The notes beneath the pieces are model-generated. The model saw nothing but the letters and a program-made list of their open reading frames with translations, ran no database searches and was not told the origin of the DNA. Of a stretch of 64,000 nucleotides of DNA, positions 2,229 to 42,489 are shown in pieces (within the stretch, counting starts at the first letter, position 1; every line of letters begins with the position of its first letter). The stretch comes from an uncultured Candidatus Bathyarchaeia archaeon (GTDB lineage Archaea > Thermoproteota > Bathyarchaeia > Bathyarchaeales > Bathycorpusculaceae). The translations under genes were made by a program, and so were the position numbers. The DNA lies in contig CAZQCX010000004.1 in NCBI GenBank assembly GCA_964591705.1, positions 2,473-66,472 of the forward strand, given 5' to 3'.

Positions 2229-2231
2229 GGT

Positions 2232-2871: not shown

Positions 2872-2872
2872 A

Positions 2873-5570: not shown

Positions 5571-7862
5571 TTGGGGATTAGGGAGACGATATCGAGAGAC
5601 AACATTGCCAGCAGCCTCAGGAAACTTGGGAAACTGCGTCTAAATGTGAGTCATGCGAGAATAATCTCAATTTCAGCTATTCTTCTCATACTTTTTATTT
5701 CATTCACGATACGAATTTTGCCTCTTAGATGGGAAATTCCGCTGGGCGTTGTTCGCCTTAACGAATTTGATCCATACTATCAGTTCATTCTGACCCAGAG
5801 AATGGTTCAAAACGGCGTGCTCTCGCCTTATTATCCTGAACCTTGGGTTTTCAAGCAGCTCTGGTCACCGCAGGGTCTAGATATGTCTATCTCGTTGCCT
5901 TCACTGCCTGCTACCGCTGCAATCCTCTATAGCATTGTGTCGTTGCTGGGAATAAACGTAGATTTGATGATGTTCTGTTCCTTTTTCCCTGCTGTTGCGG
6001 GAACGATCAGCGTTTTGATCATCTACTTTCTGGGGAAAGACTTGGGTGGAAAGCCTGTCGGCATGTTGGCTGCTCTTTTTCTGGCACTGTCGCCTTCGTT
6101 CATCCAGAGGACAGCTCTTGGCTTCTTTGACACTGAAGTTCCGGGTATACTCGGTATACTCCTGTTTAGCCTCCTATTCCTGCGTGCTATCGACGAGAAT
6201 AGAACGCTTCGTTCTTCCATGGCTTACACTTTTGGCGCTGCGTTTACATTGGCTTATCTTATCCTCGGCTGGGGCGCGGCGTATTTCATGCTAGGGCTAT
6301 CCTCCCTGTATGTGCTTGTCTTGATCTTGCTCAGGAAATACAGCCAGCGTCTCTTGCTTTCCTACAGTATAGTTTTTGGGGTTGCCCTTCTCATAGCAAC
6401 CAAAGCTCCAATAATAACGCTCAACTATCTTGTCTCCGCTGCGGTCCTTCCAGTTGCGGGGGTCTTTCTGCTTCTATGTCTATCCGAAATACTTCGTAAT
6501 CAATTGTCGATGCGAACGAAGCTCTTCTTGGTGGTAGGTTCAATAATTGTGATTGTAAGTGGGTTTGTGTCTCTCTGGCATCTCGGGCTCATGCAAAGTA
6601 TCGCCGGAAAGTTCATAACGGTCTTGGATCCGTTTATGAGGTCGACTTCGCCTTTGATAGAATCGGTGGCTGAGCATCGAGTTTCTGCTTGGGGAAACAT
6701 CTACATTGAATTGGGCGTAAGCATACTCTTTTTCCTTGGCGGATTGTATTTCACTCTGAGAAATCCAACGAATAGAAATGTTTTCCTCCTCCTTTTCGGT
6801 TTGACTTCTCTCTACTTCGCAGCCTCCATGGTTCGCCTCCTGGCTATTTTTTCGTCCGCGTTTTGTCTTCTAGTTGCTGCTGGTGTAGTTGGGGTCCTAA
6901 AGCCATTCTTCACATTACTTAAGGAAACACCACAAATTGTGACGAGGACAAAGCGGGGAATCGCGCGGGTAAGCAAGGAATACAGTGGAGTGGCAGTTTT
7001 TCTTGTGTTCACTCTCTTAGTTACCCAGTTTGCTTTCTCGCCTCAAAACAGTGGTGTGCCCAGAGTTTATGGACAGGCGTATAATCCGCTTACTGTTGCC
7101 GCAAGCAGTCTTCCTATCTCCACAAATGTGAACGAATGGGCAAATATGCTCAGCTACACCCAAAGCAATCTCCAGTCTACAGACGTCGTTGGATCATGGT
7201 GGGACTACGGCTATTGGTTGACAATACTTGGTAATGTAACAACGTTGGCTGACAATGCAACTGTGAACTTCACACAAATAGAGGATATCGGATTCTTCAT
7301 GATGGCGAATGAAACGAATGCTCTGAAAATGCTTGAACAGTATGGTGCCAAGTATATCCTTGTGTTCACAACGCTTCAGCTAAGCCAGTCAAGTAGTGGC
7401 TCAACATACATTGCCAGTTTTGGCAGATGGGGCGACGAAGGTAAATGGTCATGGATGGCAAAAATCTCGGGACAGGCACAGAATCGCTTCATACGAAGCG
7501 GTTTCATTGACGAGCAATCCTCATGGTCAGATGAGAAGGCTTTCGGGAACTACACTCTAGGCAAGATCTGGATCGATTCAAACAACAACGGTCAAGTTGA
7601 CACAGGCGAGATTGCAAACAGTCCGAAGGGGATGGCTTCGACAATATATAGACTCATGAGCTGGGCGAAACAGCGATGGACAGAAAACACAGGCGGGCAA
7701 GCGTCTCCAGACGAGACTGCTGAACGGCCTTATTACTTCAAAGAGGCTTACTTCAGCGGGGTTAACACTGCTCCACTTACATATGGCGGGATAATTCCTC
7801 TCGTTGCTCTTTATGAGATAGATTGGCAGGCATACTACTCGGCGACCAGAGCAGTTGGCTAA
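5571..7862 (+). CDS. aglB: dolichyl-phosphooligosaccharide-protein glycotransferase (archaeal oligosaccharyltransferase, STT3 family)
   Basis: 763 aa. Multi-TM N-terminal half with NEFDPYYQF, and the diagnostic WWDYGYW (WWDYG) motif in the C-terminal soluble domain. Confidence 0.9.
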   Translation: MGIRETISRDNIASSLRKLGKLRLNVSHARIISISAILLILFISFTIRILPLRWEIPLGVVRLNEFDPYYQFILTQRMVQNGVLSPYYPEPWVFKQLWSPQGLDMSISLPSLPATAAILYSIVSLLGINVDLMMFCSFFPAVAGTISVLIIYFLGKDLGGKPVGMLAALFLALSPSFIQRTALGFFDTEVPGILGILLFSLLFLRAIDENRTLRSSMAYTFGAAFTLAYLILGWGAAYFMLGLSSLYVLVLILLRKYSQRLLLSYSIVFGVALLIATKAPIITLNYLVSAAVLPVAGVFLLLCLSEILRNQLSMRTKLFLVVGSIIVIVSGFVSLWHLGLMQSIAGKFITVLDPFMRSTSPLIESVAEHRVSAWGNIYIELGVSILFFLGGLYFTLRNPTNRNVFLLLFGLTSLYFAASMVRLLAIFSSAFCLLVAAGVVGVLKPFFTLLKETPQIVTRTKRGIARVSKEYSGVAVFLVFTLLVTQFAFSPQNSGVPRVYGQAYNPLTVAASSLPISTNVNEWANMLSYTQSNLQSTDVVGSWWDYGYWLTILGNVTTLADNATVNFTQIEDIGFFMMANETNALKMLEQYGAKYILVFTTLQLSQSSSGSTYIASFGRWGDEGKWSWMAKISGQAQNRFIRSGFIDEQSSWSDEKAFGNYTLGKIWIDSNNNGQVDTGEIANSPKGMASTIYRLMSWAKQRWTENTGGQASPDETAERPYYFKEAYFSGVNTAPLTYGGIIPLVALYEIDWQAYYSATRAVG

Positions 7863-26667: not shown

Positions 26668-28329
26668 TTAGTCTTCGCCTTCAGGACCGCCAGGCATTCC
26701 TCCAGGACCTCCGGGGGCTCCTGGACCGCCTTTGGGCGATTTGGCAGTTATTACATCGTCTATGCGTAGTATCATTGAAGCGGATTCAGCTGCTGATTTT
26801 ATGGCTTGCTCTTTCACGACTGTGGGTTCGATGACTCCCTTCTCAAGACTGTCCTGAATCTTTCCTGTGAAAACGTTGATTCCTTTGTATGTGCCGTCTT
26901 CTCTTTCATGTGCCGATCTCAGATCTACGAGAACATCTATGGATTCAAGTCCTGCGTTTTCCGCCAGAGTCTTGGGTATAACTTCTACAGCGTCTGCGAA
27001 AGCTTCGATTGCAAGCTGTTCTCTTCCGCCAATTTTTGTAGCGTAGCTTCGGAGTTCTTTGGCGACTTCGATCTCGACTGCCCCTCCGCCTGCAACTATC
27101 TTGTTGTTTTCAACTACATCTGAAACCACAGATAATGCATCAGTCATTGCTCTTTCGGCTTCGTCAACCATCCTTTCGAGTCCGGCTCTGATGAGAATAG
27201 CTACCGAATGTGGGTCTTTGCATCTTTCAACGAATATCATTTTGTCTTCGCCAATTTTTCGCTCTTCAACCAAGCCTGCCAACCCTAAGTCTTTCGCTTT
27301 GAGATCCTTATTGTCAGAAACGATTTTGCCGCCCGTTGCCCTGGCAAGTTTCTCCATGTCGGATTCTTTTATTCGTCTAGCTGCGATGATTCCTTCTTTC
27401 GCGAGGAAATGCTGTACCATGTCATCAACGCCTTTTTGGCAGAAAACCACGTTTGCGCCTGCAGATTTGATTTTGTCAGCCATCTCTTTTAGCATGTCTG
27501 TTTCTTGGTCTAAGAATGCTTTCATCTGGGTTGGGTCTTTGATGCGGATTTCCGCGCTGATCTCGGTTTTCTCGATTTCAAGTGCAGAATCTAGTAGTGC
27601 GATTTTTGCGTTTTCTTTCTTCTTGGGCATTCCAGGGTGAACGACTTCCTTGTCTACGATTATGCCTTTCACCAACTGTGATTCCAATAGGCTCTTTCCT
27701 GCTTTCTTCACGAGTTGAATGTTGTCGATGTCTGCGAGCATCTTGTCGCCTCGTTTCTCGGTAATTAGCTTCACTGCCTCAATTGCAATTTCTGCTAAAT
27801 GTTCTCTTGCAGCACCGATTGCTTTGCCGCTTGTTGAAGTTAGTGCAACTTCAAGGAGTTTTTTTCGGTCGTTGATATCTACGGGAACTGAGACTTTGTT
27901 TATTGTTTCGATGGCTTTTTGCACTGCTTTTCGATAGCCGCTGACAAGGAGTGTTGGGTGTATGTTTTGGTCTAAGAGTTCCTCTGCTTTCTTGAGGAGT
28001 TCGCTTGCAAGGATGACTGTTGTGGTTGTTCCGTCGCCGACCATGTCGTCTTGGGTCTTTGAGATTTCAACCATCATTTTGGCTGCTGGGTGCTCTACGT
28101 CTATTTCGTTGAGGATTGCTGCGCCGTCGTTTGTGATTGTGATGTCGCCCAAACTGTCGATGAGCATTTTGTCCATTCCGCGGGGTCCCAGCGTGGTTTT
28201 CAGCACTTCGCCGATTACGCGTGCTGCCATTATGTTGTTTCTCTGAGCTTCCTTGCCTCTGTTTCTGGTTGTGCCCTCTTTGAGTATGAGGACTGGCTGT
28301 CCTGAACCTGTAGTAGTCAAATATGCCAT
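26668..28329 (-). CDS. ths: thermosome subunit (group II chaperonin)
   Basis: [21 protein letters not shown] and a Gly/Pro/Met-rich C-terminal tail. Start moved to ATG 28329 ([19 protein letters not shown]), which matches thermosome N-termini. Confidence 0.95.
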
Positions 28330-28556
28330 TTGATCAAACCTCACTTTGGTTGTGGAATTCTTTTTTATCGGATTTATGCAAAAATCACCCAAAAATATAA
28401 ACTTTTACCCTTAAGCTTCTGCGTTTAATCCCAGATTATATGGGGTGCGTCTTTTTTGTTTTCTGAAGCGGACCGCTGATTGTTCATTGAAGCAGGAAGA
28501 ATTGTCTCCAATGGGGCGGTTGGATACTTGCTTTCATGAAGATAGCATTCCAGCTT

Positions 28557-31500
28557 TCACTTGACAGAATTGAGAGGAGAAGTGGGTGGCGTCATCCATG
28601 CTTTTTCACCTTCGCCTTCGAGTTTGCATTCTATTGGGAGGGTTATGGTGAAGGTTGAACCTTTGCCTTCAGTGCTGTCAACGGTGATTCTGCCTTGGTG
28701 CGCCTCTACGATGCGCTTGCAGATGGCTAAGCCGAATCCCATGCCTTGCGCCTTCGTTGTCACCAGGGGCGTAAAGACTTTGCTCATGGTCTCTTTTGTC
28801 ATGCCTATGCCTGTGTCTGAGAAGAAAATTTCCAAACTGTCGCCTATTTGTCGGCTCTTCACTTTGAGCGTTCCTCCTTGAGGCATTGCGTCAATTGCAT
28901 TCTTCAATAGGTTGATGAAGACCCTGAGCAACTTGTTTTGATCGACGCTTATGAAAGGTTCATTCGCTAAATAGTTCACCGTTTCGATGTTTTCTGGGAT
29001 TCTGATTGTTGACAGTGCTCGCTCTAAAAGCTCTCGAGGTGAGCAGCTCTCGATCTCAAGCTTGGGTTCCTTTGAATAGTCTAGCAGATCATTTATGACC
29101 TTGTCCGCGTACGTGATGGAACTGTCAATGATTTCGAAGATTTTCTTGGCGTCGGCATTGCCTTGGTTTGCCTGTGTCTTTTTCGCATAGTAAATGGCGT
29201 TCCTTATTGCACTCAGCGGATTGCGCAGATCATGTCCAACCATGCCTGCCAATTCTCCGATGGCGGCATACCTTTCTGCTTTCAGCAAAAGCTCATTCGC
29301 TCGTTTCAGTTCAGTTGTTCGTTCTTCGATGGTTCGTTCTAGGTCTCTGGAGTATTTTTCAATTCGTTCTTGGAGCAGTTTTTGTTCAGTAATGTCTTTC
29401 TGAACTGAAATAGAGTGGAGCAAGTTGCCATTATTATCATAGAAAGGATTAACACTAAGCAAGACTGTTCGTTCTTCTCCCTTTTTTGTGATTATTGTGA
29501 GTTCTTCATTGTCTATTTTTCCAGTTTCTAGAAATTTCTGAAACAGTCTTTTGGCTTTTTCTCGCGACGAAGGCGCGTAGATAGTGAATAAGGATTTGCC
29601 AACTAGCTCTTCCTTGTCATAACCGAAGCTTTCCAGTGCACACTTGTTGATATCCAAGAATGTTCCCTTAGGCGAAACCATATAGCAATATACTGGAGCG
29701 TTTTCGAAAATCAGCCTAAACTTCCGTTCACTTCTGCGTAAGGCTTCTTCTTTATCTCTTATCTCGGTTAAGTCGGTGAAGATCCATTGCTGAGCAGGCT
29801 TTCCATCATAAGTCATTGGTTGGTTGTAACAAAGAACAGGCAATTCTTTGCCATCTGACTTGATTAAGCTAATTTCTATTGGCGCAATTTTCGATCCTGT
29901 CACCATTCTTTCCCCATACTCTGAAACTAATTTGTGGTGACTATTCGGAATATGCCTTTCAATTTGCTTCTGCGTGTCGAAGGAGAACGAATTCAACTCT
30001 TCAACTGTATAACCCAGTTTTTCAGTTGTAATGGGGTTGGCATACTTTATGTGGGCGTCTTGGAGAATGATCACCATCTGAGGCAAATTCTCAACAAGCA
30101 GCCTGTATTTTTCCTCAGACTCTCGCAACTTCGTGTCACTTCTCTTGCGTTCTGTGATGTCTCTTGCGATGCTCAAAATCGCTTTTTCTCCCCTGTAGCT
30201 AACAATGCTAGAGCTAATTTCCACTGGCATCTGGTTTCCGTCTTTGCTTGTGTGCACTGTTTCAAAAACCTGCGTTCCAACAGTAGGCAGACGATCGATG
30301 AGGTTTTTGACGCGGTTGCTGTCTAGATGTTTGTCTATTCCTGCGATGTCCATAGAAAGCAATTCCTCTTTGGAGTAACCCAGCACTTTGACCGCTGCGT
30401 CATTTACATCGAGAAAGTTACCGTCGAAACCGATAACCCAGACCGACTCAGTCATTCCATTGATTAGCTCTCTATATTTTGCCTCGCTTGTTCTCAGCGC
30501 ATCTTCACTCTCTTTTCGTTCTGCTATGTTTTTTGCAATATGTACCGTCCCGACCAGTTGACCTTCATTGTTGAAAATTGGGGAGTCAGTCACGAGCAGT
30601 GGACAACCAAGATTCGGGTCATTTATTTCTTCAGTCACCGACATTCCTGTTGCTATTGTCTTAGCATGAGGGCAATTCAGCCAAGGTTGTTTTGTGCCAT
30701 GGATGATCTCAAAGCAAAGTCTCCCTTGTAATTCTGAAGGCTTTTTCTTCAATGCAGTGCACAATGCTTTGTTGGCTCTTGTGATTCTGTAGTCTTTGTC
30801 TACAATGAAGACAAAATCGCTAATTGCATCAAAGGTTCTTTCCCATTCCTGTGCAGCTCTCGCGAGCTGCTCTTCTGCCTTCTTCACTTCTGAGACATCG
30901 TTGTAGACAGCCACTATATTGCCACTAGGCAGTCTGTAGACCCAGTTTTCTCTCCACCCCCTGACGCGTGTGTCCCTGTAGAATCTGCTAGGAATATGCT
31001 CCGCAAGACCCGACCGATGAACCCTCCTGAAAACGTCTAGCAGACCGAATTTTTTGACCCCTGGAAAGACATCTGTCACGCGTTTCCCCAAGATGTCCTT
31101 CTTTCTGGTGTGCTCAATATGTTCGGCAGCTTTGTTGAAGTCCAAGAATATGAAGTCGGAACCGTCGTCGATGGGTCGATAGACCGCAATACCGCAGGGA
31201 GCGGTGTCGAATAGTTGTCTGTATTTCTTTTCAGATTCTCTTACGATTTTTTCTGCTCTTCTCCGAATAGTGATATCCGTGACAAAAGCGTAATAGTGTG
31301 TCACATTCCCCTTCTCGTCAACAAATGGATGAACGACAAGCTCAACTGGCACCATAGTGCCATCTTTGCGGATGTATTCCTTCTGGTATTGCACAGGTCT
31401 CTTTGTGCACTGCAATTCCTGAAGTTTTGTTTCTTCGGTTTTTCTGTATTCTGGAGGTGTCAAATCCTTGCTCCAGCTAATTTTCGAAAGTTCATCTTCG

Positions 31501-32843
31501 GTATAGCCGGTAAGTTTTCTGTATGCATCATTGGTTATCCCCAGCCTACCATCTGGAAAGCCGATTCCGATAGCAATTGATGAATCCCTGACGAGTTGTG
31601 CCAGAAACGATTGCTGCGCATGGCTTTTTTTGAGCGCTGCTTCGGCTTTTTTCCTTTCAGTTATGTCTCTTACAACCATGCTTGTTTTGGTTTTGCCTTG
31701 AGCATCTGTAAACAGTTTTGAGCTTACTTCGGCGGGGAAGGTGGTTCCGTTTTTCCGCTTGAAAGTGAGCTCAGCTGTTGCCTGACCAGTCTGCTCTCGC
31801 TCCTTCAGGGCTCTCAGCAGATTTTCGTCTTGAACAATCACGCCACTCCGCCCTGCTCTTTTTATCTCCTCTTCTGACATGCCCAGCATTTCGCACATTT
31901 TTGGATTTGCTGAAAGAATTGCGCCATCCGGCATCGTTAACATTATTCCGTCTAAACTGTTGTCAACTATGTTTCGGTAGCGGATTTCGCTTTCCCTCAA
32001 CAGTTGCTCGTTTGTCTTTCTGTCGGTAATGTCTCTGGCTATCGCAACAATGAACTTCTCGCTATTTAGTTTCATAGGTGACATCGAGAGCTCAATCAGG
32101 AATTCTGTGCCATCCTTTCTTAGTGCAGGAAATTCCCAAGTCCGACCTTCACAAAAGCCATTTTCCGCCTTGAGGATTTGATGAGCGAGATTTACGTGGT
32201 TCTTGCGGAAACGTGGAGGTACAAGCGTTTCGTTTACTTGTTTACCTACTATCTCTTCTTCTGCATAACCAAAAATGTCTGCTGCGGCTGGGTTCCAATA
32301 TGAAATTACGTCTCTTCCGTCAAACATGAATACAGCATCACGAATTGATTCAGTAATTGAACGCAACTTCATTTCATTGTCTACTGTTTCCCGCATCTTT
32401 TGTTTAGCAAGGTCTTCCATGTTCTTCGCATGAAACTGAAGACGTTCCATGTCCTGATTCTTTCTCGAAACATCATGGAAGACTACAAGATCAGCTGGTT
32501 GCTTAGCATAAATCACCCGCACGCCTCTCACCTCAGCGTATCTCGTAATCCCGTTTCTGTCAGTGAAACATATTTCGTAAGGTTGAATTGGCAAACCCTG
32601 CATTCGCTTTTTTAGATTTTCAAAGAGAATTGCCTTAGTTTCTGCAGTTATAGAGTCAAACTGAAGAAAAGATTTCCCAACGATCTCTCTATTCCTCAAG
32701 CCGGTAACATCTTCAAAAACATGATTGACTGCAAGGAAATTCCCCTTCTCATCAACTATAACGGCCATATCGGATAGGCGGTTCAGGAGCTTCCCTGCTT
32801 TCCCGCGGCGCGTTTTTCTTTCGTCCATCAATGTCCCTTTCAT
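28557..32843 (-). CDS. multi-PAS sensor histidine kinase (nine PAS/PAC repeats)
   Basis: Nine PAC-end motifs: DVSRK, DITDRK, DITERK, DITIRR, DVSEVK, NIAERK, DITERK, DLTEIR, DITEQK. H box GHDLRNPLSAI, N box LKNAIDAM, G1 DTGIGM, G2 GMGFGLAI. Start uncertain; ATG 32843 (MKGTLMDERK) chosen, and the ORF is open to 32918. Confidence 0.9.
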   Translation of the reverse strand: MKGTLMDERKTRRGKAGKLLNRLSDMAVIVDEKGNFLAVNHVFEDVTGLRNREIVGKSFLQFDSITAETKAILFENLKKRMQGLPIQPYEICFTDRNGITRYAEVRGVRVIYAKQPADLVVFHDVSRKNQDMERLQFHAKNMEDLAKQKMRETVDNEMKLRSITESIRDAVFMFDGRDVISYWNPAAADIFGYAEEEIVGKQVNETLVPPRFRKNHVNLAHQILKAENGFCEGRTWEFPALRKDGTEFLIELSMSPMKLNSEKFIVAIARDITDRKTNEQLLRESEIRYRNIVDNSLDGIMLTMPDGAILSANPKMCEMLGMSEEEIKRAGRSGVIVQDENLLRALKEREQTGQATAELTFKRKNGTTFPAEVSSKLFTDAQGKTKTSMVVRDITERKKAEAALKKSHAQQSFLAQLVRDSSIAIGIGFPDGRLGITNDAYRKLTGYTEDELSKISWSKDLTPPEYRKTEETKLQELQCTKRPVQYQKEYIRKDGTMVPVELVVHPFVDEKGNVTHYYAFVTDITIRRRAEKIVRESEKKYRQLFDTAPCGIAVYRPIDDGSDFIFLDFNKAAEHIEHTRKKDILGKRVTDVFPGVKKFGLLDVFRRVHRSGLAEHIPSRFYRDTRVRGWRENWVYRLPSGNIVAVYNDVSEVKKAEEQLARAAQEWERTFDAISDFVFIVDKDYRITRANKALCTALKKKPSELQGRLCFEIIHGTKQPWLNCPHAKTIATGMSVTEEINDPNLGCPLLVTDSPIFNNEGQLVGTVHIAKNIAERKESEDALRTSEAKYRELINGMTESVWVIGFDGNFLDVNDAAVKVLGYSKEELLSMDIAGIDKHLDSNRVKNLIDRLPTVGTQVFETVHTSKDGNQMPVEISSSIVSYRGEKAILSIARDITERKRSDTKLRESEEKYRLLVENLPQMVIILQDAHIKYANPITTEKLGYTVEELNSFSFDTQKQIERHIPNSHHKLVSEYGERMVTGSKIAPIEISLIKSDGKELPVLCYNQPMTYDGKPAQQWIFTDLTEIRDKEEALRRSERKFRLIFENAPVYCYMVSPKGTFLDINKCALESFGYDKEELVGKSLFTIYAPSSREKAKRLFQKFLETGKIDNEELTIITKKGEERTVLLSVNPFYDNNGNLLHSISVQKDITEQKLLQERIEKYSRDLERTIEERTTELKRANELLLKAERYAAIGELAGMVGHDLRNPLSAIRNAIYYAKKTQANQGNADAKKIFEIIDSSITYADKVINDLLDYSKEPKLEIESCSPRELLERALSTIRIPENIETVNYLANEPFISVDQNKLLRVFINLLKNAIDAMPQGGTLKVKSRQIGDSLEIFFSDTGIGMTKETMSKVFTPLVTTKAQGMGFGLAICKRIVEAHQGRITVDSTEGKGSTFTITLPIECKLEGEGEKAWMTPPTSPLNSVK

Positions 32844-33354
32844 CTTGGCTCCCAACTGTTTGGATACTCGATTGCGCGAGCATGCGTGCCTTGAGTCGCC
32901 GATTCGAGAGACCCACACCTGTCATCTGTCAGGTGCATACAACTTTGATGCCACAAATGCGTGTCAACTTCTCTCACATTACCCTTCATCGGTTAGTGTC
33001 AATCACCTAATCGCATTTTGCTCGTTTGGAGCCTGTGCGAACGGCTTCCTTGCTCATTGGCTTTGCATTCAGAAGAGAACCTTTGAAAGACAAATAATGT
33101 TTGTGAACATGAAGTTCAGAGTTGAGGTTCAGATTTCGCATACTTCTCACTACCTGCGGCAATGAGTTATTGTCACGTTTCTTGTTCGACCCTGAGTTTT
33201 GACCTGCCAGAAGAAACAGACCGGGCGATGCCGTCTTCCTTGGTTCCTTTTCAACTCGTTTGCTTGTTGGTCTTTCCAAGCAAGTTCAACAACACCCCAT
33301 TTTTTGTGAGGCTTTGGCTGGCAGGTCTGGCTGCGTCAAGCGTGCCAGTCGCCT

Positions 33355-35241
33355 TCAGGGCTGATGTCGGCGACCTCTCGGAGGTATAATGAACTCAAAT
33401 TGGACACCCTGACCTGCTTTGCCACTCTCCCGTACAGACCAACCATAGATTTCGCATATTTTGCGTATTAAGAACAATCCAAACCCTGTTCCCTTTCCAA
33501 AGCCCTTTTGGAACAGGTGTTCTCTGATGTTTTTATCGCAAATACCAACGCCATCATCCCTATAGCACAATCTCACTGAACAGTCATCAAGCTTCTCAGC
33601 AAAAATACTGATGGCGGTTACTTTTTCACCATATTTCAACGAGTTGTCAATGAGATTATAGAAAACCTGGGTCAGCAACGAGTCTGCGATCACTTCAAGA
33701 CCTCCGCAGCGATTTTCAACAACCACACCCTTGAGATCAGAAAACAGGGTTAACGCATTCGTAACAGTCTTCCCTACGTCAAGAGGACCCAATTCTTCGA
33801 CCCCGATCATTTCATACGTCTTCGCAAAATCAAAAATATCAGAAATGTTTCTAATAGCATCATCAATGTTCTGCAGGTATGTCTCCAATTCAGGACTGAT
33901 TGCACATTTATGCCTCGCCAAATACAAATTGCCCTGTATTACCCCAAGTTTGTTTCTAGCATCATGCCTTGTGAAGCCGCCCAGCACCATAATCTTCTCA
34001 TTCAGCAACTCTGCCTTCGCCAACGCTTTCTCTAGTTCACTCTGCACCGTCACAACATCAGAAATATCCACATATGCCATGAAGAATCCAACCAACTTAC
34101 CATCTACCCATATTGGACCGCCAGACATTGCCACGTTGAAAACCGAATCATCAAGCTTCTTCCTCATGGTGATGAAGTTCACTGGTCCTTCCAGAATCAT
34201 CTCACGGACCATCTCTGACTCCTCTTCAAACCCAACAGGCACAATCACATCAGTGATTACCTTACCTCTTATGTTCTCAAGAGTCCATCCAAAAAGCTCC
34301 GTGAACGCATGATTTATGTCGGTCACACGGAAATCCTTTTCAGTGAAAACGACCGCATATGGGTTAGCAGAAAAAAGAGCCTTCAATTTCTGCTGGCTTT
34401 CCTTCAGCAGAAGCTCCTGCATTTTACGCTGAGTAACATCTCGAACGATGCTCACCCCATACCATTCACCATCTTCCACAAAAGCCGAGAACGAAAGCTC
34501 TACACCAATCGCCTCGCCTGAAGCTTTCCTGAGTGTGAGCTCAACTGTTTTCCCCCTCATTGCCAGAGTTTCATCTGGCAATTGCTTGAATCCTTCAACC
34601 ATGTTTTGCTCATAGGTCTTCGTGAATTGCTTGCCAAAATGTTCGCCAAGCGCTCGGGTTATTTCAGATCTGGCAAAATCGAGCATAGCATTAGCAGCCT
34701 TGTTGAAGTAAACGATCTCCCCAGAGTCGTCAAGAACCAAGATGGCATCTTCCGAAGAATCAAAAACCGCTCGAAATCGCCTTTCACTCTGCAAGAGTTT
34801 CTCCTGAGTTCTCGCATGTTCAGCAGCTTGCCGGATACAGGATGCTAGTTCAGCGTATGCCGCAACCGGGGCGCCGCGCTTGTTCATGTACCTGAACGCG
34901 CCTAGATTCAGCGCTCTTTCTGCGACTTCATCCCGCCCTTTGCCCGTGAACAAGACGAAAGGCGTCGCGACACCCATAGCTTTCAATTCGCGTAGAAACT
35001 CCAGCCCATCTTTCTCAGCCATTTGATAGTCTGAAACAATCACATCAAATTTCTCAGCCTTCAGCATTTCAAGAGCCATCTTAACCGAATTCGCAGATTC
35101 AACTTGAATGTCAGCCTGCAATTCCAAACATTGTTTCGCCATACCCAGAAAAGCACAGTCATCGTCAACATGCAGTATCCGAATTGGGCTGTTAGAGAGT
35201 ATGGCAATAGTCGGTTCCCCCAAAACAGTTTCAGTCATCAA
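33355..35241 (-). CDS. hybrid receiver-PAS-PAS histidine kinase
   Basis: N-terminal receiver (ILHVDDD...VIVSDYQM...), two PAS/PAC units (DVTQRK, DISDV), H box TRHDARNKL, ATPase motifs LIDNSLKYG, DDGVGI, GTGFGLFL. Confidence 0.85.
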   Translation of the reverse strand: MMTETVLGEPTIAILSNSPIRILHVDDDCAFLGMAKQCLELQADIQVESANSVKMALEMLKAEKFDVIVSDYQMAEKDGLEFLRELKAMGVATPFVLFTGKGRDEVAERALNLGAFRYMNKRGAPVAAYAELASCIRQAAEHARTQEKLLQSERRFRAVFDSSEDAILVLDDSGEIVYFNKAANAMLDFARSEITRALGEHFGKQFTKTYEQNMVEGFKQLPDETLAMRGKTVELTLRKASGEAIGVELSFSAFVEDGEWYGVSIVRDVTQRKMQELLLKESQQKLKALFSANPYAVVFTEKDFRVTDINHAFTELFGWTLENIRGKVITDVIVPVGFEEESEMVREMILEGPVNFITMRKKLDDSVFNVAMSGGPIWVDGKLVGFFMAYVDISDVVTVQSELEKALAKAELLNEKIMVLGGFTRHDARNKLGVIQGNLYLARHKCAISPELETYLQNIDDAIRNISDIFDFAKTYEMIGVEELGPLDVGKTVTNALTLFSDLKGVVVENRCGGLEVIADSLLTQVFYNLIDNSLKYGEKVTAISIFAEKLDDCSVRLCYRDDGVGICDKNIREHLFQKGFGKGTGFGLFLIRKICEIYGWSVRESGKAGQGVQFEFIIPPRGRRHQP

Positions 35242-35424
35242 TCTCGCCAGCTCACCAATGATTTGAACACTTGAAGCCTATGGTCTAGTGCATAAAATTG
35301 TTTATGAATTGGCACTCAGTCTTTGGAATAAGACTCACCCGGTTTTCGACAAACAAAATAAAGATTGACGATTCATAAGAAATAAGAACAAACCTTCGCA
35401 ATCTAAAATGAACGGTGGCTATCT

Positions 35425-35877
35425 TTGGTTAACATAGTTCTCGTTGACGATGACGAACAATTTCGGAAAATGCTATGTGAAATCCTAGAAGAAAAAGGAT
35501 ACACCGTCAAATGCTTCGGAAATGGCAGAGATGCCATCGATGCAAGTTATGAGGAGCTCTTCAACATTGCCCTCATAGACATTCACTTGCCAGATACGGA
35601 AGGAACTGAACTTCTCACCAAACTCAGAAAAACAGAGCCGGCAACTGTAAAGATAATCTTAACCGGCAACGCCACTTTGGACAATTCAATCGAAGCCGCG
35701 AACAAGGGAGTAGACGGCTACATAGTGAAGCCATTTGATCCTAAAAAACTGCTTAACCTTATAGAAAAGAAACTGAAAGAACAACGAGAGAAGATAGAGT
35801 TCGACGAGAAAAAAGTAGCCGAGTACATAGGGCTAAGACACGAATGGATGACAACGGCCAAAATTGGAAGAAAATAG
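35425..35877 (+). CDS. receiver-only response regulator with short C-terminal helix (RR1)
   Basis: VLVDDDE, phospho-acceptor context IALIDIHLPD, LTG, conserved Lys in YIVKPFD. No recognisable output domain. TTG start. Confidence 0.85.
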   Translation: MVNIVLVDDDEQFRKMLCEILEEKGYTVKCFGNGRDAIDASYEELFNIALIDIHLPDTEGTELLTKLRKTEPATVKIILTGNATLDNSIEAANKGVDGYIVKPFDPKKLLNLIEKKLKEQREKIEFDEKKVAEYIGLRHEWMTTAKIGRK

Positions 35878-36228
35878 AACTTCTCCCAACTCGTGGTCAT
35901 CCTCGTGAAAATGCGGCTGATAAGAGAGCATCACTTTTCCAATCTTGAACTTGCCATCAGAATCCTGAAGAAATAGCCTCCATTGCACTATTCCTCCCAG
36001 CAGTCAGATGCAGACAATTCAAATGCGAGCGTCCTCCCCATTTTATTCATCCTCAAAAAGGCATCAAATCTTGCATCGTTTGGCCGGCATAAGTCTAGAT
36101 TACGCGAAAATTGTCTTATTTGTTCAGTTCACAATCACATGACCAACCATTCTTGGGGCATCTTGGACTATTGTACGCGTATTGATTTGGAGTTCGCAAT
36201 GGTTATTATCTGACACACATTATCTCCT

Positions 36229-36615
36229 GTGGAGCCGCGTGACTGGTTGACCCTGAACAGAAAGGAGCTGCCTCCTAGCAAATTTGAAATGATCATGGTT
36301 AACGCTATTGATGAGGCTCTTTCCTCTTTGGGAGAAAAATCTAAAGAACTGATTTTCTTTCATCTTGAGCAGGATTTTGCACTGAAGAAATCTGCAATTC
36401 CTTCCAACCTCGAAATTTTCGCGGATGCAATTGAGGAAATATTCGGAGCAGGGGCAAAATTCCTTGAAATGCTTATCATGAAACGACTCACTGAAAAGGT
36501 TGGAGGGTTCTTCAGGCTGGAAGAGGCAGAAATGGGCGACTACTTGATAGCTGCAACAGATTTCTCTAAGAAAATTATGGAACTGTTCCAGAAGCAACAA
36601 ACCGACTGCCAGTGA
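36229..36615 (+). CDS. uncharacterised helical protein X1, paralogue of 37701..38093
   Basis: Core NAIDEALSSLGEKSKELIFFHLEQDFALKKSAIPSNLEIFADAIEEIFGAGAKFLEMLIMKRL aligns at roughly 45-50% identity (by eye) with the other copy. That conservation selects this strand over the antisense ORF 36220..36657. ATG 36289 is an alternative start. Confidence 0.7.
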   Translation: MEPRDWLTLNRKELPPSKFEMIMVNAIDEALSSLGEKSKELIFFHLEQDFALKKSAIPSNLEIFADAIEEIFGAGAKFLEMLIMKRLTEKVGGFFRLEEAEMGDYLIAATDFSKKIMELFQKQQTDCQ

Positions 36616-37033
36616 CGCACCGGGTAAGGAACAAATAACACAGGATGTAGGAAGCATTTAGTGAATTTGACCCTCCTATACATCCTTCCCAATGCACCCA
36701 TTTCGCAGAGATGAACCGCAAGAAAGAAGCCAGAATAAGCATAAAAGCATGAATGTAAAAACACCCGCTCAGACGGAGAATGAATGAGCGATACACTATC
36801 CACTCTCATTTTTCAAACTGTTGGGAATAGTGAATGAGATCAGCAGGTGCAGACAAGAGTCGCTTCTAGACAATGACCTTGAGGATTCGGCAACAAGCCT
36901 CCAAAGAACAAAGGTAAATAATAAGATGGCGCTAGGAGGTAGAAATCGCCAAAGCTACAAAAATAATTGCTTTGTTTATTGTGAGCAAAACCTAAGAGAA
37001 TACGAATTACGAGAAAAGGGGAACATGCGAGAG

Positions 37034-37483
37034 CTAAGCTTTGGCGATTTCCTTTACACGAGTTTCAATGAATTCAGCCACTCTTTCTTCGTTGTAAGTC
37101 CTCTCCATCTTCTGCAGCATCAAATGCGTTTCAATCGTCTTCAGAAGCTTTGCTGGGTCGACAGGTTTGATTAAGTAGGCGTCAGCCTTTCTGTTGACAG
37201 CGTCAATTGCGTTTTGCACCGAGGGATAGCCAGTCAGCATGATCTTGCGCATTCTGGGAACAGTGTCCCTCATTCTCGACAGCAGTTCAGTTCCTTCGAT
37301 GTCGGGCAGCTTAATGTCTAATAGTGCCAAGTTGAAGAACCCCTCATTTGATTTTCGTATAGCTTCATGCCCGTTCATAGCCGTGTTCACAGAGTAGCCT
37401 TCTGCTTCAAGCAAAAGGCGCAAGGTTTCAAGAATGTTCTTGTCATCATCGACCAGCAGAATCCGCGGTTTGTCCTTTTTCAA
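37034..37483 (-). CDS. receiver-only response regulator with short C-terminal helix (RR2)
   Basis: LLVDDDK, LALLDIKLPD, LTG, YLIKPVD. Paralogous to RR1, including the tail (YNEERVAEFIETR vs FDEKKVAEYIGLR). Confidence 0.85.
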   Translation of the reverse strand: MKKDKPRILLVDDDKNILETLRLLLEAEGYSVNTAMNGHEAIRKSNEGFFNLALLDIKLPDIEGTELLSRMRDTVPRMRKIMLTGYPSVQNAIDAVNRKADAYLIKPVDPAKLLKTIETHLMLQKMERTYNEERVAEFIETRVKEIAKA

Positions 37484-37700
37484 GATGTCACCTCCAATCT
37501 CTCGATTGACAAACTATTAGTGGGAGCAGTATCTCTTCAACCTCAGTATTCACCACTGATGCTAATGCCTTGGCAACCCTCAGTCCTGTTGCTCGCCAGC
37601 TCATCGCCCACAGCAATATTGGACGTAACAAGGTCCTGTCTTCAATCATCCTGCTCTTTAACCCCGTCTCATCCGACCTCCTCAGACGTTTCATCACCAA

Positions 37701-38093
37701 TCACGCGAAGTTCCGCTTCATCATGTTTACGTACTGTTTAAAGGTAAGTTCTGGCACAACCCATTTGGGCAAATCCCATTTGTACTCAATCTGTATCTCT
37801 TCGTGGAGTTTCTTCATTATCAAAATCTCCAGATGCCTAGCGCCTGAACCGAAAACCTTCTCAAGGGCATCTGAGAAATCATCAATCCTGAATGGGATCT
37901 CTCGCTTTCTTATTCCAAAAGTGCCTTCCAGATGATAGTATATTGCGTGCATGGATGATTCACCCATGGAGGAAAACGCTGCATCAATTGCGTTGAGCAA
38001 TACGCGATAGAAGGATTGCCCTGTGCCGACTGTTAACATTGCGCATGGCGGTTCTTGATCCAATCCCGTTACGGCTGAACTGCTTTTACGCAA
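37701..38093 (-). CDS. uncharacterised helical protein X2, paralogue of 36229..36615
   Basis: Core NAIDAAFSSMGESSMHAIYYHLEGTFGIRKREIPFRIDDFSDALEKVFGSGARHLEILIMKKL. TTG start at 38093; ATG 38039 is an alternative. Confidence 0.7.
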   Translation of the reverse strand: MRKSSSAVTGLDQEPPCAMLTVGTGQSFYRVLLNAIDAAFSSMGESSMHAIYYHLEGTFGIRKREIPFRIDDFSDALEKVFGSGARHLEILIMKKLHEEIQIEYKWDLPKWVVPELTFKQYVNMMKRNFA

Positions 38094-38126
38094 TCAGGCT
38101 CGCTCCTTCCGACAGACATATATATT

Positions 38127-38147
38127 AACTCTTAATATATAAGAGTT
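38127..38147. promoter_or_regulatory. inverted repeat AACTCTTA-ATATA-TAAGAGTT overlapping the AT-rich TATA-like region upstream of X2
   Basis: Perfect 8-bp arms with a 5-bp AT spacer, 34-54 nt upstream of the X2 TTG start. The adjacent CATATATATTA (38117-38127) is TATA-box-like on the minus strand. Confidence 0.4.
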
Positions 38148-38432
38148 TTGAAGCTCGAGAACTTTTTCACAAACGCACAACACGTATCTCCTCAAACCCA
38201 ACAATCCAACCAGAGCACGAACTAAAAAACAACCAGTCCCCACAGCACCAACACGTCAATAACGAATTCCCAAGAAACCACCCACCTGAAAATTGGGACA
38301 ATCCCCCAGAACCCACTAACCCCCTATTCACCCATAGTCTCACATTTCAAACTCCAGTCTGAAATCAAACTTGGAATGCCATAGTAAGCAAACCCTTGCC
38401 CAAGGACGCCGTGTTCACGTGAAAAGCTTAAT

Positions 38433-38807
38433 ATGTCTTCCACCCGTCTTATCCATGAGACAGGAGATGGAAAAACGAAAGGCGCAATAGTATTCCTCAT
38501 AGTATTCGCCATAGTTGTAGTCATAACCTTGGGTAACACATCAATTCCCCCTGGAAAAGCCATCTACGACGCGGTTCTACCCGGAACAGAAGCGGCTTCA
38601 GGCTACTTGGTCGGTGGTACTGTGGACGCAGTGACACTCATCATTGCTGTCTTCAACGGCGTCATCTATGGATTCATAGCATGGTTGCTATTCACATTGG
38701 CAACGATGGGTCGCAAAAAGAACAAGGCACAGAATATCCAGCAAGTCGTAAACGTCAATCTCGGCGAAAAAGATAAGAAAGAAGAGAAGAGCACAACCCA
38801 AAACTAA
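38433..38807 (+). CDS. hypothetical membrane protein (2 TM, Lys/Glu-rich tail)
   Basis: 124 aa with two hydrophobic helices (AIVFLIVFAIVVVITL; LIIAVFNGVIYGFIAWLLFTLA). No motif recognised. Confidence 0.5.
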   Translation: MSSTRLIHETGDGKTKGAIVFLIVFAIVVVITLGNTSIPPGKAIYDAVLPGTEAASGYLVGGTVDAVTLIIAVFNGVIYGFIAWLLFTLATMGRKKNKAQNIQQVVNVNLGEKDKKEEKSTTQN

Positions 38808-38932: not shown

Positions 38933-40939
38933 CTAAGAAAGCATTATCAAAGGAGTCAACGACATCAGCAAAGGCGCGATCAGCAGCGAAGTCATATTCG
39001 TAAGCTTCATGAAGATGTTCAAAGACGGTCCTGCCACATCCTTCAAAGGATCCCCAACTGTGTCACCAACCACCGCCGCTGTGTGAGTCTGCGACCCTTT
39101 CAGCCAGAAAGCTTTAGCCTCAATGCCCTTCTTAGTATTATCCCATAAAGCCCCACCAAAAGTGAAAAACGAAGCTAACAAAGCAGCCGTGCAGGTTCCG
39201 CCTAAAAGCATCCCTCCCAAAGCATAGGGTCCAAGTATCAACCCCATCAACAAAGGTGAAGCCAAAGTCACAAAAGTCGGCATAATCATTTTCTTCAGAG
39301 CATTCTTAGTGCTAATGTCAATACACTTGTCATAATCCGGCTTATCTCTGCCTTCCAGAATACGAGGATTAGCCTTAAACTGCCGTCTGACCTCGTTCAC
39401 CATGTCGAAGGCGCCCTTCGCTGTCGCTGCGATAGTGAAAGACGAAAAAAGAAAAGGAATCACCCCGCCAATCAGAATGCCAAAAACAAACGCTTGACCC
39501 AGCCTAGCTGACCACAACCCCACCACGTGACTATAGGTTGCAAACAAAACCACAGTCGAAACAGTACCCGAAGCAGTGGCAAACGCCTTAGCATACGCCT
39601 TTGTCGTATTGCCAGTGGCGTCAAGAACTTCCAGCGCCCCATTAGTCTTCGCAGGAAGACCGGCCATCTGCTCTATCCCCTGAGCATTATCGCTGATGGG
39701 ACCAAAAGCATCACCGGCCATGATAATCCCAATAGTCAAATCTGTTCCCAAGTTCACGGCGAGAAGACCCAGCATCGACCCATTCGTCACTATGAGGGCA
39801 AGCAGCATTGCTCCAATCATAGAAAGAAAAGGCAAAAACGGACTCTGAAGCCCATACGACAAACCGGTTATCAGATTAATCGCAACCCCCCGTTTGGAAG
39901 CCTCCTCCATCTGCAAAACAGGCTTTCCAGAAGTACCTAAATAATACTGAACAACCAACCCCACAGCCGTACTTGCAACTATCCCGCTGAAAGCACAGAA
40001 GAAGATACGCAGATCATTCAATAACCAGACAGATGCAAAGTAAGCTCCTACAGTAGCCACCCCCGCCGCCACAACCAGCCCAACATTGAAAGAAGTGATC
40101 GGCCTCACGTTCCTCCACCCCCTAACAACCAAAACCCCCAACAGCGTAGCTACCACACCCACTGTTCCCAAAGCAAAAGGAAACATCAAAACATTCTCTC
40201 CCGCCCCCCCAACGAAGAGACTCCAGCCAATAATCAGTGCAGTCACGAAATCATCACTTATTGACTCAAACAAATCTGAACCTCGCCCAGCACAATCCCC
40301 AACATTATCCCCGACTTGATCAGCAATAACAGCGGGATTTCTGATATCATCCTCAGGTATGTTCTGCTCTATCTTGCCAACCAAATCAGCGCCAATATCC
40401 GCAGCTTTCGTAAAGATCCCCCCGCCGAGTTGCGCAAACAACGCTGCAAGACTCGCTCCAAACCCATAGCCAATCAACGAGTCTAGATTCCTACTCCCAT
40501 AAATCAGGTACAACAAACTGATCCCGAGAAGGCTCAGCCCCACCACAGACAAGCCCATTACGGCTCCACCTCTGAATGCAAGGGTAAACGCTCTCGCCGA
40601 AGATGACATGGCAGCCCTTGCAGTCCTAACATTCGCCCGAACAGCCACATTCATCCCGATATAAGCGGCAACCATGGAAAGAGCCGCACCCGTATAGAAA
40701 GAAATCACAACTTCCAACGAGCGGAAAACAACAGCGATCGGCAGACACAAAAGAGACACAAACAACAGAATCGTCCTATACTGCCTCTTCAGAAAGGTCT
40801 TAGCACCATTTCTGATGTATCTAGCGACCTCGCGCATCTCAGGCGTTCCCGGGTCTTCGCGATGAATTGACCAAGTCAAATACGCCACAACGGCCATTGC
40901 AAGGGCGCCTACAGCCAACGCGATCCAAACCAAGACCAT
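38933..40939 (-). CDS. hppA: membrane-bound H+/Na+-translocating pyrophosphatase
   Basis: GGGIFTKAADIGADLVGK, DNVGDCAGRG, GDTVGDPLKD. Start placed at ATG 40939, which is preceded by GGAG with an 8-nt spacer. The ORF is open to 40972. Confidence 0.92.
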   Translation of the reverse strand: MVLVWIALAVGALAMAVVAYLTWSIHREDPGTPEMREVARYIRNGAKTFLKRQYRTILLFVSLLCLPIAVVFRSLEVVISFYTGAALSMVAAYIGMNVAVRANVRTARAAMSSSARAFTLAFRGGAVMGLSVVGLSLLGISLLYLIYGSRNLDSLIGYGFGASLAALFAQLGGGIFTKAADIGADLVGKIEQNIPEDDIRNPAVIADQVGDNVGDCAGRGSDLFESISDDFVTALIIGWSLFVGGAGENVLMFPFALGTVGVVATLLGVLVVRGWRNVRPITSFNVGLVVAAGVATVGAYFASVWLLNDLRIFFCAFSGIVASTAVGLVVQYYLGTSGKPVLQMEEASKRGVAINLITGLSYGLQSPFLPFLSMIGAMLLALIVTNGSMLGLLAVNLGTDLTIGIIMAGDAFGPISDNAQGIEQMAGLPAKTNGALEVLDATGNTTKAYAKAFATASGTVSTVVLFATYSHVVGLWSARLGQAFVFGILIGGVIPFLFSSFTIAATAKGAFDMVNEVRRQFKANPRILEGRDKPDYDKCIDISTKNALKKMIMPTFVTLASPLLMGLILGPYALGGMLLGGTCTAALLASFFTFGGALWDNTKKGIEAKAFWLKGSQTHTAAVVGDTVGDPLKDVAGPSLNIFMKLTNMTSLLIAPLLMSLTPLIMLS

Positions 40940-41134
40940 TACTGGTTCTCCGAACAGGTTACCTGCGTCCAATCATACCGTGTAAGTTGTTATCCTGCAG
41001 AGGACCTATTAAGGCTTCAGCCCTAACCACGTGAACCAACAAACTTTAACTGAATTAGCAGCTCTCTCAAAGAAAAAGACAAAACCGGCAAGTCCACAAA
41101 CGAAAACATATTATTCTAAGTATACTATTCTAAG

Positions 41135-41551
41135 ATGACGCAAAAACAGCAGAGGATAGAAATGCAGGACAAAATCCGAATACTCGTCGGTTACGACGCT
41201 TCACCCCAATCAAAACAAGCACTAACCGAGGCAATAGCCATTGCCAAGAAATTCTCAGGATTCATAAAGGTAGTCAGCGTCCACGGCAGAGGCTACAAAG
41301 AAAAAGCCGAAACAAGCGTCATCGAAGTCAAAGAAAACCTGAAGAAAGAACAAGTCGAATACGAGGTTGAACTCGTCGAGGGCTCTAACCCCGCCAAAAC
41401 CCTTGAAACCACAGTCAAGAAAGAAAACTTTGACCTAGTCGTGATCGGAAGCAGAGGCCTAGGAAATACGGCATCCATGCTTCTAGGCAGCGTTTCGAGA
41501 CGGATCGTCAGCAACGCACAATGCAATGTGTTGGTCGTGAAAGGCCAGTAA
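41135..41551 (+). CDS. universal stress protein family (UspA)
   Basis: ILVGYDASPQSKQAL ... VVIGSRGLGNTASMLLGSVSRRIVSNAQCNVLVVK. Confidence 0.85.
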   Translation: MTQKQQRIEMQDKIRILVGYDASPQSKQALTEAIAIAKKFSGFIKVVSVHGRGYKEKAETSVIEVKENLKKEQVEYEVELVEGSNPAKTLETTVKKENFDLVVIGSRGLGNTASMLLGSVSRRIVSNAQCNVLVVKGQ

Positions 41552-41625: not shown

Positions 41626-42180
41626 TCATTTCAAAGTGACTTTTCGCTTCTGCTTTGGTGCTTTCTTGGGAAGAGTGATCTCTAAGACACCTTCTAACGG
41701 GTTTGCCACAACTTCGTCTGTTTTTACCTCTTCTGGCAACTCGATCATTCGGTAGAACGATTCACATGCCCGTTCTTTGCATATGTATGCGCGAGACTTC
41801 TTGTCATATTTCCAGCCCGCCTTACCAGTGATGCCAACGGAGTTGTCTTGAACCTCGATTTCGATGTCTTCTTTCTTGAAGCCGGGCATCTCTGCCCTCA
41901 AAACGTAGTCTTTCTCTCTGTCCTCCAAGTCCACCACTGGAACACGGATCTCCGGCATCAGCGCTAATGCCCTATCCCACAATGATGGAAACAAAAGATC
42001 CCCAAAATCGCTTCGAAACCTTTCGAAAACATCATCGAACGCCCTCCAAAGGTTCGACGGCGTTGCAGGCGACAAAGCGGATTGCTTTTGCGGTTTTGCC
42101 AGTGATTCTTTCTTTGGCGTGACAGCAATTTCCGTCTTGAGATTTTTTTCAGCCTCTGGCTGCTTTTTTGTCTTTGGCAT
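41626..42180 (-). CDS. hsp20: small heat-shock protein (Hsp20/alpha-crystallin family)
   Basis: Alpha-crystallin domain VDLEDREKDYVLRAEMPGFKKEDIEIEV ... GVLEITLPK. Start set to ATG 42180 (MPKTKKQ). The upstream extension in the ORF track has no protein-like character. Confidence 0.85.
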   Translation of the reverse strand: MPKTKKQPEAEKNLKTEIAVTPKKESLAKPQKQSALSPATPSNLWRAFDDVFERFRSDFGDLLFPSLWDRALALMPEIRVPVVDLEDREKDYVLRAEMPGFKKEDIEIEVQDNSVGITGKAGWKYDKKSRAYICKERACESFYRMIELPEEVKTDEVVANPLEGVLEITLPKKAPKQKRKVTLK

Positions 42181-42489
42181 AGAAATTCCCCTGCACTGGA
42201 AGGGGGCTTCCTCGAATTCATGGTTTACTTGAATTTTCAGAGACGCAACTCGGAGCGTAGATGCATGGTTCTTTCGGACTCTCCGAACACAACAAAGGCC
42301 AAAGCGGAAAGATAGAAAACAAGAAGACTCAAGAAAACGAAAAAACTTGGACCCCAACCCAACTGTCACGAAAAGACATAGGAAGGAATTAATTCTCGCC
42401 GTTCACGAGAGCGCACTAGCAAGTATTACTTGCTGATCTTGACTGAATAAGCCAAATAGTCTTAACCTTGAGAAGCCAATCTGACTACT

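Follow-up and report, generated by a model that had tools for sequence, protein, structure and literature searches.

Bathyarchaeia are abundant sediment archaea. In a 64,000-nt stretch of the genome of an uncultured representative (GenBank assembly GCA_964591705.1, contig CAZQCX010000004.1, positions 2,473 to 66,472), referred to in its full length as the window, two response regulators (RRs) that contain only a receiver domain (REC), RR1 and RR2, are each encoded near a small helical protein, X1 and X2, respectively. We consider it probable that X1 and X2 belong to a stand-alone four-helix branch of the DUF3227/NitrOD5 domain superfamily and form the third component of a module of histidine kinase (HK) and receiver, in which X acts together with the receiver. 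A first-pass annotation, made from the sequence alone, had described the four genes as a duplicated cassette and as a candidate novel signalling output module. All four open reading frames (ORFs) were found at the claimed coordinates in the ORF table. Concerning the novelty, the domain superfamily and its service to RRs are already published, while the conserved X-(X)-HK-REC operon is new, as are the very large Bathyarchaeial family outside Pfam, the fusions of X to kinases and a receiver clade with a signature helix.

Operon linkage of X to kinases and receiver-only regulators

The gene neighbourhoods of X homologues were analysed in a census, for which one genome per GTDB species was scanned with patterns of the family. 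The best 80 loci among the 140 relatives obtained were analysed, and 79 of these 80 are labelled Bathyarchaeia or Bathyarchaeota. Hidden Markov models (HMMs) of REC, of the X family and of the catalytic core of the kinases, built from window and locus sequences, were applied to their ORFs. X was detected in 79 loci, in 38 of them as a tandem pair. The arrangement XX-HK-REC was the most frequent with 29 loci, followed by X-HK-REC with 19 and by X-REC, with a gap of approx. 100 nt between the two genes, with 12. One locus (L002) contained a fusion of X and HK followed by REC. A downstream REC was not detected in 18 loci, and in 14 of these the contig ends within 3.5 kb. The module was present in 61 of the 65 assessable loci.

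The genes of the module all lie on the same strand, namely X (often in tandem), the kinase (sometimes absent) and a receiver-only RR of approx. 150 aa. X and HK as well as HK and REC overlap by 4–49 nt according to independent gene calls. Downstream of X, 60 receiver-only ORFs were counted in 309 kb, compared with 2 in 317 kb upstream. The kinases between X and REC have the architecture PAS/GAF-HisKA-HATPase_c or, in L025, CHASE4-HisKA-HATPase_c, and no receiver domain was detected in them with Pfam. A comparison of the largest upstream neighbour in 75 loci yielded 38 non-homologous clusters and therefore, the module moves as a unit and not as part of one inherited syntenic block.

The census was also conducted in the reverse direction on three contigs examined from RR2 homologues, with the X genes confirmed by the X HMM, and X was recovered on all three. 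L090 contains X (138 aa), a PAS kinase and REC in this order. In L088, a gene of X3, a more divergent X subfamily described below, is followed by REC and then by X (138 aa), a PAS kinase and REC, and L087 has a kinase-REC pair that is convergent with an X3-REC pair.

It could be argued that X is unrelated to the receivers and lies near them by chance in this genome. The cassettes of the window differ in gene order and have spacers of 217–351 nt, and the nearest homologue of X1 is not located beside an RR, which would fit such an incidental adjacency. However, it is hardly credible in view of the frequency and polarity of the linkage, the diverse upstream contexts, the overlapping frames, the fusions and the reciprocal census, and for the X family as a whole it is already refuted. 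The first-pass idea of X as a dedicated partner or output of the receivers is thus supported by systematic operon linkage, but output is only one of two readings, as a role on the kinase side is also possible.

Some census loci showed additional features. In L021 (4989–8869), X-REC is located directly upstream of NrdR and the anaerobic ribonucleotide reductase NrdD, a recurrent context; the same NrdR/NrdD locus occurs in L033 and L080 (4980–8480), where X is found without a receiver. L019 (DATKLC010000013.1) is labelled Candidatus Krumholzibacteriaceae bacterium and has a typical Bathyarchaeial X-HK-REC module, possibly due to a binning error or transfer. In L083, a Y1 (IS200-like) transposase (5977–6417) follows right after an X-REC pair that has a large REC-PAS hybrid kinase on either side. 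On two unrelated contigs, namely L088 (1190–1678, plus strand) and that of the X homologue P0036, X is adjoined by a small ORF that matches the TFIIB repeat weakly and beneath the threshold (17 bits). It was rejected as a general output, since no homologue was found in L001–L080 or in the window.

Relation of X to the DUF3227/NitrOD5 domain

A word-indexed search returned 36 homologues of X1 at E ≤ 1e-10, all of them named 'hypothetical protein' and none with a precomputed Pfam domain. NCBIfam has no family covering X. A profile search that covered 1.84 billion cluster representatives assigned 2563 of them to the X family at E ≤ 1e-3; with a cut-off of E ≤ 1e-10, 1226 remained. The 150 best matches have, with few exceptions, a length of 100–200 aa, and X is a stand-alone protein in nearly all of them as well as of 119 genome-derived copies. 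In the latter, G35, I42, H45, F50, I57, P58, F64, I71, F72, G73, G75, A76, E80, L82, I83 and L87 (X1 numbering) are at least 95% conserved, followed by S37 with 94%. These conserved positions are mostly hydrophobic or acidic, and the motifs quoted in the first-pass annotation correspond to the most conserved columns of the family. The AlphaFold2 (AF2) model of X1 (predicted local distance difference test, pLDDT, 87.5) shows long helices at residues 16–32, 36–50, 61–90 and 99–127 plus one short helix.

A third and more divergent subfamily, X3, consists of proteins of 119 aa with Tyr in place of His45 and matches the X HMM with E-values of 1e-12 to 1e-13. It is encoded in L087 (3652–4011, minus strand) and L088 (179–538, plus strand), in both cases directly 5' of its own receiver of approx. 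151 aa.

The core of X had been considered as not assignable to any known family. This is correct in that no Pfam match was above threshold, but matches to PF11537 (NitrOD5/DUF3227), with a gathering cut-off of 27 bits, were consistently found beneath it. X1 matched with 19.4 bits at model positions 4–77 of 94, and X2 with 14.3 bits. Of 37 X members, 30 matched PF11537 with E-values of 0.1 or lower (the lowest being 4.4e-4), none of them reaching the cut-off, and none of the other Pfam families recurred in more than three of the 37. X2-type orthologues (14.3 and 19.7 bits) and X3 did not reach the threshold as a bridge to PF11537 either.

Two profiles of the X family, A1 and A2, both ranked 2p9x (PH0832 of Pyrococcus horikoshii) first in the PDB with E-values of 6.5e-3 and 3.4e-3, respectively. 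The alignment runs through the F..A...FG..A..LE..I..KL motif in the third helix and covers the C-terminal half only. When the AF2 model of X1 was used with Foldseek, 2p9x_A and 2p9x_B were the top two matches (probability 1.00, target-normalised template modelling (TM) score 0.72, E 0.05) and all other matches had E-values of at least 1. With 51.6 bits in the comparison of a 43-aa fragment to PF11537, 2p9x is a true member of the family. Given the sub-threshold Pfam matches together with the profile and fold matches, X is, as judged from sequence profiles and models, a distant homologue of DUF3227/NitrOD5 that is missed by present Pfam thresholds. X was therefore not placed in an unrelated family but at the edge of PF11537, a described RR output domain that is also found stand-alone (PMC5847659).

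NitrOD5 was named as a thaumarchaeal RR output domain (Galperin et al. 2018, PMC5847659). It occurs as REC-NitrOD5 in Nitrosopumilus maritimus and in several stand-alone copies in other genera (PMC5847659). In the same work, it is placed in an archaeal 'Death domain-like' family, a label that rests on the citation of Makarova et al. 2017 (PMC5847659). No Death, CARD or Pyrin structure was among the top 50 Foldseek matches of the X1 model. Literature searches on DUF3227 and PH0832 returned nothing.

Two other functions were considered for X. As a histidine phosphotransfer protein (Hpt- or Spo0B-like), it would take over the phosphate of the RR on His45 and hand it on to a further receiver, e.g. 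the N-terminal REC of the abundant REC-PAS-kinase hybrids. X is a small helical bundle with His45 in 118 of the 119 genome-derived domains, it shares its operon with a kinase and a Spo0F-like receiver, and REC-PAS-kinase hybrids are located nearby in the window and in L083. Still, no match to Hpt (PF01627) was found with Pfam at E ≤ 1, and the Foldseek match to HptB had only an E-value of 4 and a TM score of 0.24. Tyr or Ala takes the place of His45 in P0003, P0004, P0006, P0011, P0036 and X3, of which P0006 and X3 are still directly followed by a receiver, and the exchange of His for Tyr between hydrophobic neighbours suggests a structural role. Moreover, the operon kinases are not hybrids, so that a relay is not required. 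Phosphotransfer is considered as very unlikely and was rejected as the main model, given the missing Hpt signal and the replaceable His45 in REC-linked subfamilies.

Alternatively, X could be a small DNA-binding transcription factor that is controlled by the receiver, and archaeal two-component systems are without known DNA-binding outputs (PMC5847659). Weak HTH_62 matches in two of 37 members, among them X1 with 17.9 bits, point in this direction. However, these matches (17.9 and 13 bits) are rare and beneath the 27-bit cut-off, and neither a helix-turn-helix nor a winged-helix protein was among the top 50 Foldseek matches. The isoelectric point of the X domain has a median of 6.2 and is as low as 4.8 for X1, and the hydrophobic and acidic character of its conserved positions likewise speaks against DNA binding. 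This function is thus improbable, though slightly less so than phosphotransfer.

The window cassettes and their receivers

X1 (36229–36615, plus strand) is a helical protein of 128 aa with its core at residues 19–92; external gene calls place the start at 36247, resulting in 122 aa. Its paralogue X2 (37701–38093, minus strand) has 130 aa and belongs to an 'X2-type' subgroup. The two are 48% identical over the 73-residue core (E 1e-25), in agreement with the earlier estimate of about one half, but only 37% identical when they are compared across the whole domain alignment. RR1 (35425–35877, plus strand, 150 aa) and RR2 (37034–37483, minus strand, 149 aa) share 47% identity over 135 aa (E 6e-43). 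Their description as receiver-only paralogues proved right: Response_reg was the only Pfam domain in each of them, with 87.8 bits for RR1 and 91.9 bits for RR2.

RR2 is canonical for the clade of X-linked receivers, while RR1 is a divergent paralogue. With RR2 as query, 1847 homologues were obtained at E ≤ 1e-10; the top 120 among them are without exception REC-only proteins of 142–159 aa. Alignment A4, of which RR1 and RR2 are part, shows no variation at D13, D14, D56, T84 and K106 (RR2 numbering), so that the residues of two-component receivers are all present (phospho-acceptor Asp, acidic pair, Thr and Lys). The short C-terminal helix that had been noticed in both RRs is real. The region behind the receiver is 70–90% conserved across 63 X-linked receivers with the consensus Y-S-Q-E-K-V-A-E-F-I-E-T-R-V-K-E-L, and the helix signature of the partner RRs is EKVAEFIETRVKEL. 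The helix of RR2, ERVAEFIETRVKEI, equals the clade consensus, and that of RR1, KKVAEYIGLRHEWM, is divergent. X3-linked receivers have the variant IAxFLK/RxK/R (IAxFLKSK...). In the AF2 model, RR2 adopts the standard (beta-alpha)5 fold and alpha5 is extended to a single helix over residues 110–148 (mean pLDDT 90.4; 81–96 over these residues).

RR1 and RR2 align best with receivers of the NtrC/AtoC/NosR type, through about residue 125–141, and many RR2 homologues are named 'NtrC family' by the Joint Genome Institute (JGI). NtrC/DctD-type receivers have a coiled-coil linker after alpha5. They resemble RR1 and RR2 in the long helix running on from alpha5, whereas RR1 and RR2 lack an AAA+ or DNA-binding domain, end after the helix and carry the clade-specific signature.

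The gene order in the window had been stated correctly with RR1 before X1 on the plus strand and X2 before RR2 on the minus strand, but the two arrangements are not equivalent. X2-RR2 keeps the order of the family with X first, though without a kinase in between, and is the canonical one. RR1-X1 is the reverse of the family norm; this pair is rearranged and more divergent. Both gene pairs are paralogous. A recent duplication or inversion was rejected, given that X1 and X2 are nearest to different subgroups and that a DNA repeat search revealed neither DNA-level similarity between the cassettes nor duplication scars or flanking inverted repeats. In tandem X pairs, the first gene (Xa) and the second gene (Xb) represent distinct orthogroups with 64% identity within and 42% between them. 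X2 is nearer to Xa (48% vs 37%), and X1 is nearest (approx. 50%) to single X genes located before kinases. The C-terminal segment KW..KWVVPE(L/M)TF..YV that marks the X2-type is also present in the 138-aa proteins of the X-HK-REC operons in L088 and L090. Concerning the receivers, RR2 shows a mean identity of 53% to those of the census loci, its identity to metagenomic orthologues reaches 77%, and RR1 has a mean identity of 45% to X-linked receivers. On account of these subgroup distances and the lack of shared DNA repeats, the two pairs are old paralogues. Like the window, L087 and L088 contain two neighbouring cassettes.

X2 and RR2 are probably transcribed together. TATA-like AT-rich elements (cttatatatt and ttaatatatat; 38118–38143, minus strand) were read 25–50 nt 5' of the X2 start codon, followed by GGAGG (38103–38107, minus strand) as putative ribosome-binding site of X2. 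Within the 217-nt spacer between X2 and RR2, no AT-rich box comparable to that 5' of X2 was found, and the spacer ends in GGAGGTGA just before the RR2 start. This suggests the boxes and GGAGG as candidate promoter and ribosome-binding site of a joint X2-RR2 transcript. An Rfam scan of 35000–38500 gave chance-level matches only.

The two kinases reported upstream of the cassettes were both confirmed by Pfam and are located within 0.2–2.5 kb. One is a cytoplasmic histidine kinase of 1453 aa (28557–32918, minus strand) with PAS_9 in nine stretches, HisKA and HATPase_c, the other a hybrid REC-PAS-PAS-histidine kinase (33355–35241, minus strand) with Response_reg, two PAS_9 and HATPase_c that is transcribed divergently from RR1. 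They are candidate cognate kinases of the window RRs, the hybrid because of proximity alone. Related operons have a PAS/GAF kinase between X and REC. The hybrid kinase has a clear HATPase_c but no HisKA match in Pfam and therefore, its phospho-acceptor helix is atypical; a weak SPOB_a-type match was found at residues 415–446.

The signalling locus is bordered by stress and chaperone genes encoding a thermosome, a membrane H+-pyrophosphatase, a universal stress protein and Hsp20 (26668–28392, minus; 38933–40972, minus; 41135–41551, plus; and 41626–42369, minus). The thermosome (26668–28392) is 87–91% identical to proteins labelled Candidatus Bathyarchaeota or Bathyarchaeia, which assigns the window to an archaeon of this class. 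In L017, a thermosome gene (1801–3453) is likewise located 0.7 kb 5' of X. These surroundings may be a coincidence or hint at a regulon.

Role of X in the module and comparison with known systems

Three fusions of X were observed: X-5xPAS-HisKA-HATPase_c in P0180 (1165 aa, NCBI MFB3888032.1, Bathyarchaeia), X-PAS-GAF-HisKA-HATPase_c (882 aa) followed by REC in L002, and X-PAS-PAS followed by more PAS-kinase ORFs in P0125. Since X and the kinase are normally encoded in different, overlapping frames, frameshifts may have produced some of them artificially, but three independent cases make a genuine X-kinase fusion likely. No fusion of REC and X was found among the ORFs of the census loci or the top 120 RR2 homologues.

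X could thus act on the kinase side, given its first position in X-HK-REC operons and its occasional fusion to the N-terminus of the kinase. As an accessory protein or co-sensor, it would bind the N-terminal PAS/GAF region and tune autophosphorylation, and the receiver would signal elsewhere. In most operons, the stop of X overlaps the kinase start, all three fusions have X at the kinase N-terminus, and L057 as well as the P0036 contig contain X and kinases without a receiver-only RR. On the other hand, X stays with the receiver when there is no adjacent kinase, as in the 12 X-REC loci, L083, L087, L088 and both window cassettes. The related NitrOD5 is fused to REC and not to kinases (PMC5847659), and the sensors of the kinases vary (PAS/GAF or CHASE4) while X and REC are constant. 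A role on the kinase side is therefore rated as rather doubtful, though it is the most serious of the rivals.

In the reading that we favour, the kinase would phosphorylate the receiver, which has no output domain and would signal by contacting X, most likely via the conserved C-terminal helix. X as a separate protein would take the role of the NitrOD5 domain that is fused to REC in Nitrosopumilus. It would relay the signal by contacts with further proteins, perhaps in the form of X-X homo- or heterodimers, and not by DNA binding or catalysis. The output role is preferred because it matches the REC-NitrOD5 fusion and because X remains beside REC in loci where the kinase lies elsewhere. The homology, the fold, the operon conservation, the kinase fusions and the RR helix are observed; from them we infer that RR and X bind physically, and likewise the direction of the signal and a downstream target of X. 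The output role and that on the kinase side would be compatible if X were a scaffold binding kinase as well as receiver.

The novelty put forward in the first-pass annotation was overstated, since the superfamily is known. Several points weigh against the favoured reading. Every X sequence is under the gathering threshold of PF11537 and therefore, the analogy to NitrOD5 rests on distant homology. Nearly all loci are from one class, so that the counts are not phylogenetically independent. Four assessable loci contain X but no receiver (L033, L057, L066 and L080). P0002, which at 61% identity is closest to X1 among its homologues, lies upstream not of an RR but of a multi-pass membrane protein of 156 aa (L084, 965–1435, plus strand, on a contig of only 1.6 kb), and the P0036 contig has kinases without a receiver-only RR. 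Finally, the fusions join X to the kinase N-terminus and not to REC, and X is the first operon gene, which fits a kinase-side role equally well.

A more far-reaching model, which we regard as unlikely, assumes a previously unrecognised three-component architecture of Bathyarchaeia. X would be a generic output adaptor of receiver-only RRs with their docking helix, and Xa/Xb heterodimers or kinase-fused X would build homotypic Death-like complexes that wire several kinases and receivers; the most radical version adds a phosphate relay via His45.

Approximately 40% of the archaeal RRs are bare receiver domains. Most archaeal REC-only RRs are without a conserved neighbourhood (PMC5847659) and therefore, their targets could not be inferred. 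The X module is a clear and experimentally tractable exception to that rule. It offers a defined, cloneable set of three proteins to study how an archaeal receiver-only RR passes its signal on, and the DUF3227/NitrOD5 superfamily gains thousands of unannotated proteins of Bathyarchaeia that are missed at current Pfam thresholds.

Compared with known systems, X is most similar to NitrOD5, which is likewise a small all-helical archaeal domain, mostly stand-alone, present in several copies per genome and linked to receiver domains. Both have the motif F-x2-A-x3-(I/L)-F-G-x-x-A-x2-L-E-x-x-I-x-K-L in common, although X scores only 14–20 bits against the 27-bit cut-off. To our knowledge, no experiment has addressed what NitrOD5 itself does. 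X differs in its fusions to kinase N-termini, an extra C-terminal helix and the near-invariant pair of His45 and Glu80. It is linked to REC by operon (X-HK-REC or X-REC), NitrOD5 by fusion to the REC domain. The hosts differ as well, as X is Bathyarchaeial and NitrOD5 is found in Nitrosopumilus, Nitrosotalea and Nitrosotenuis (PMC5847659).

HalOD1 (PF18545) is a haloarchaeal output domain that occurs stand-alone, fused to REC or fused to PAS (PMC5847659). Like X, it is an abundant small stand-alone protein that is also fused to REC or PAS modules, and this shared usage implies a node for protein-protein interactions in the signalling of archaea. In contrast to X, HalOD1 has (D/E)hh(D/E/N) metal-binding-like motifs; a sequence relation between the two was not detected, and a conserved operon of the X-HK-REC type has not been reported for HalOD1.

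The bacterial single-domain receivers of the pairs CheY-FliM, Spo0F-Spo0B and PhyR-NepR (partner switching) pass on their phosphorylation state by contact with a separate partner, a small and often helical protein that is encoded nearby. X differs from FliM, Spo0B and NepR in that it has no homology to them, no Hpt/Spo0B signature and no sigma/anti-sigma context. Nevertheless, with the contact between RR and X as a candidate, the X module would share the logic of these systems, namely a receiver without output domain and a separate partner.

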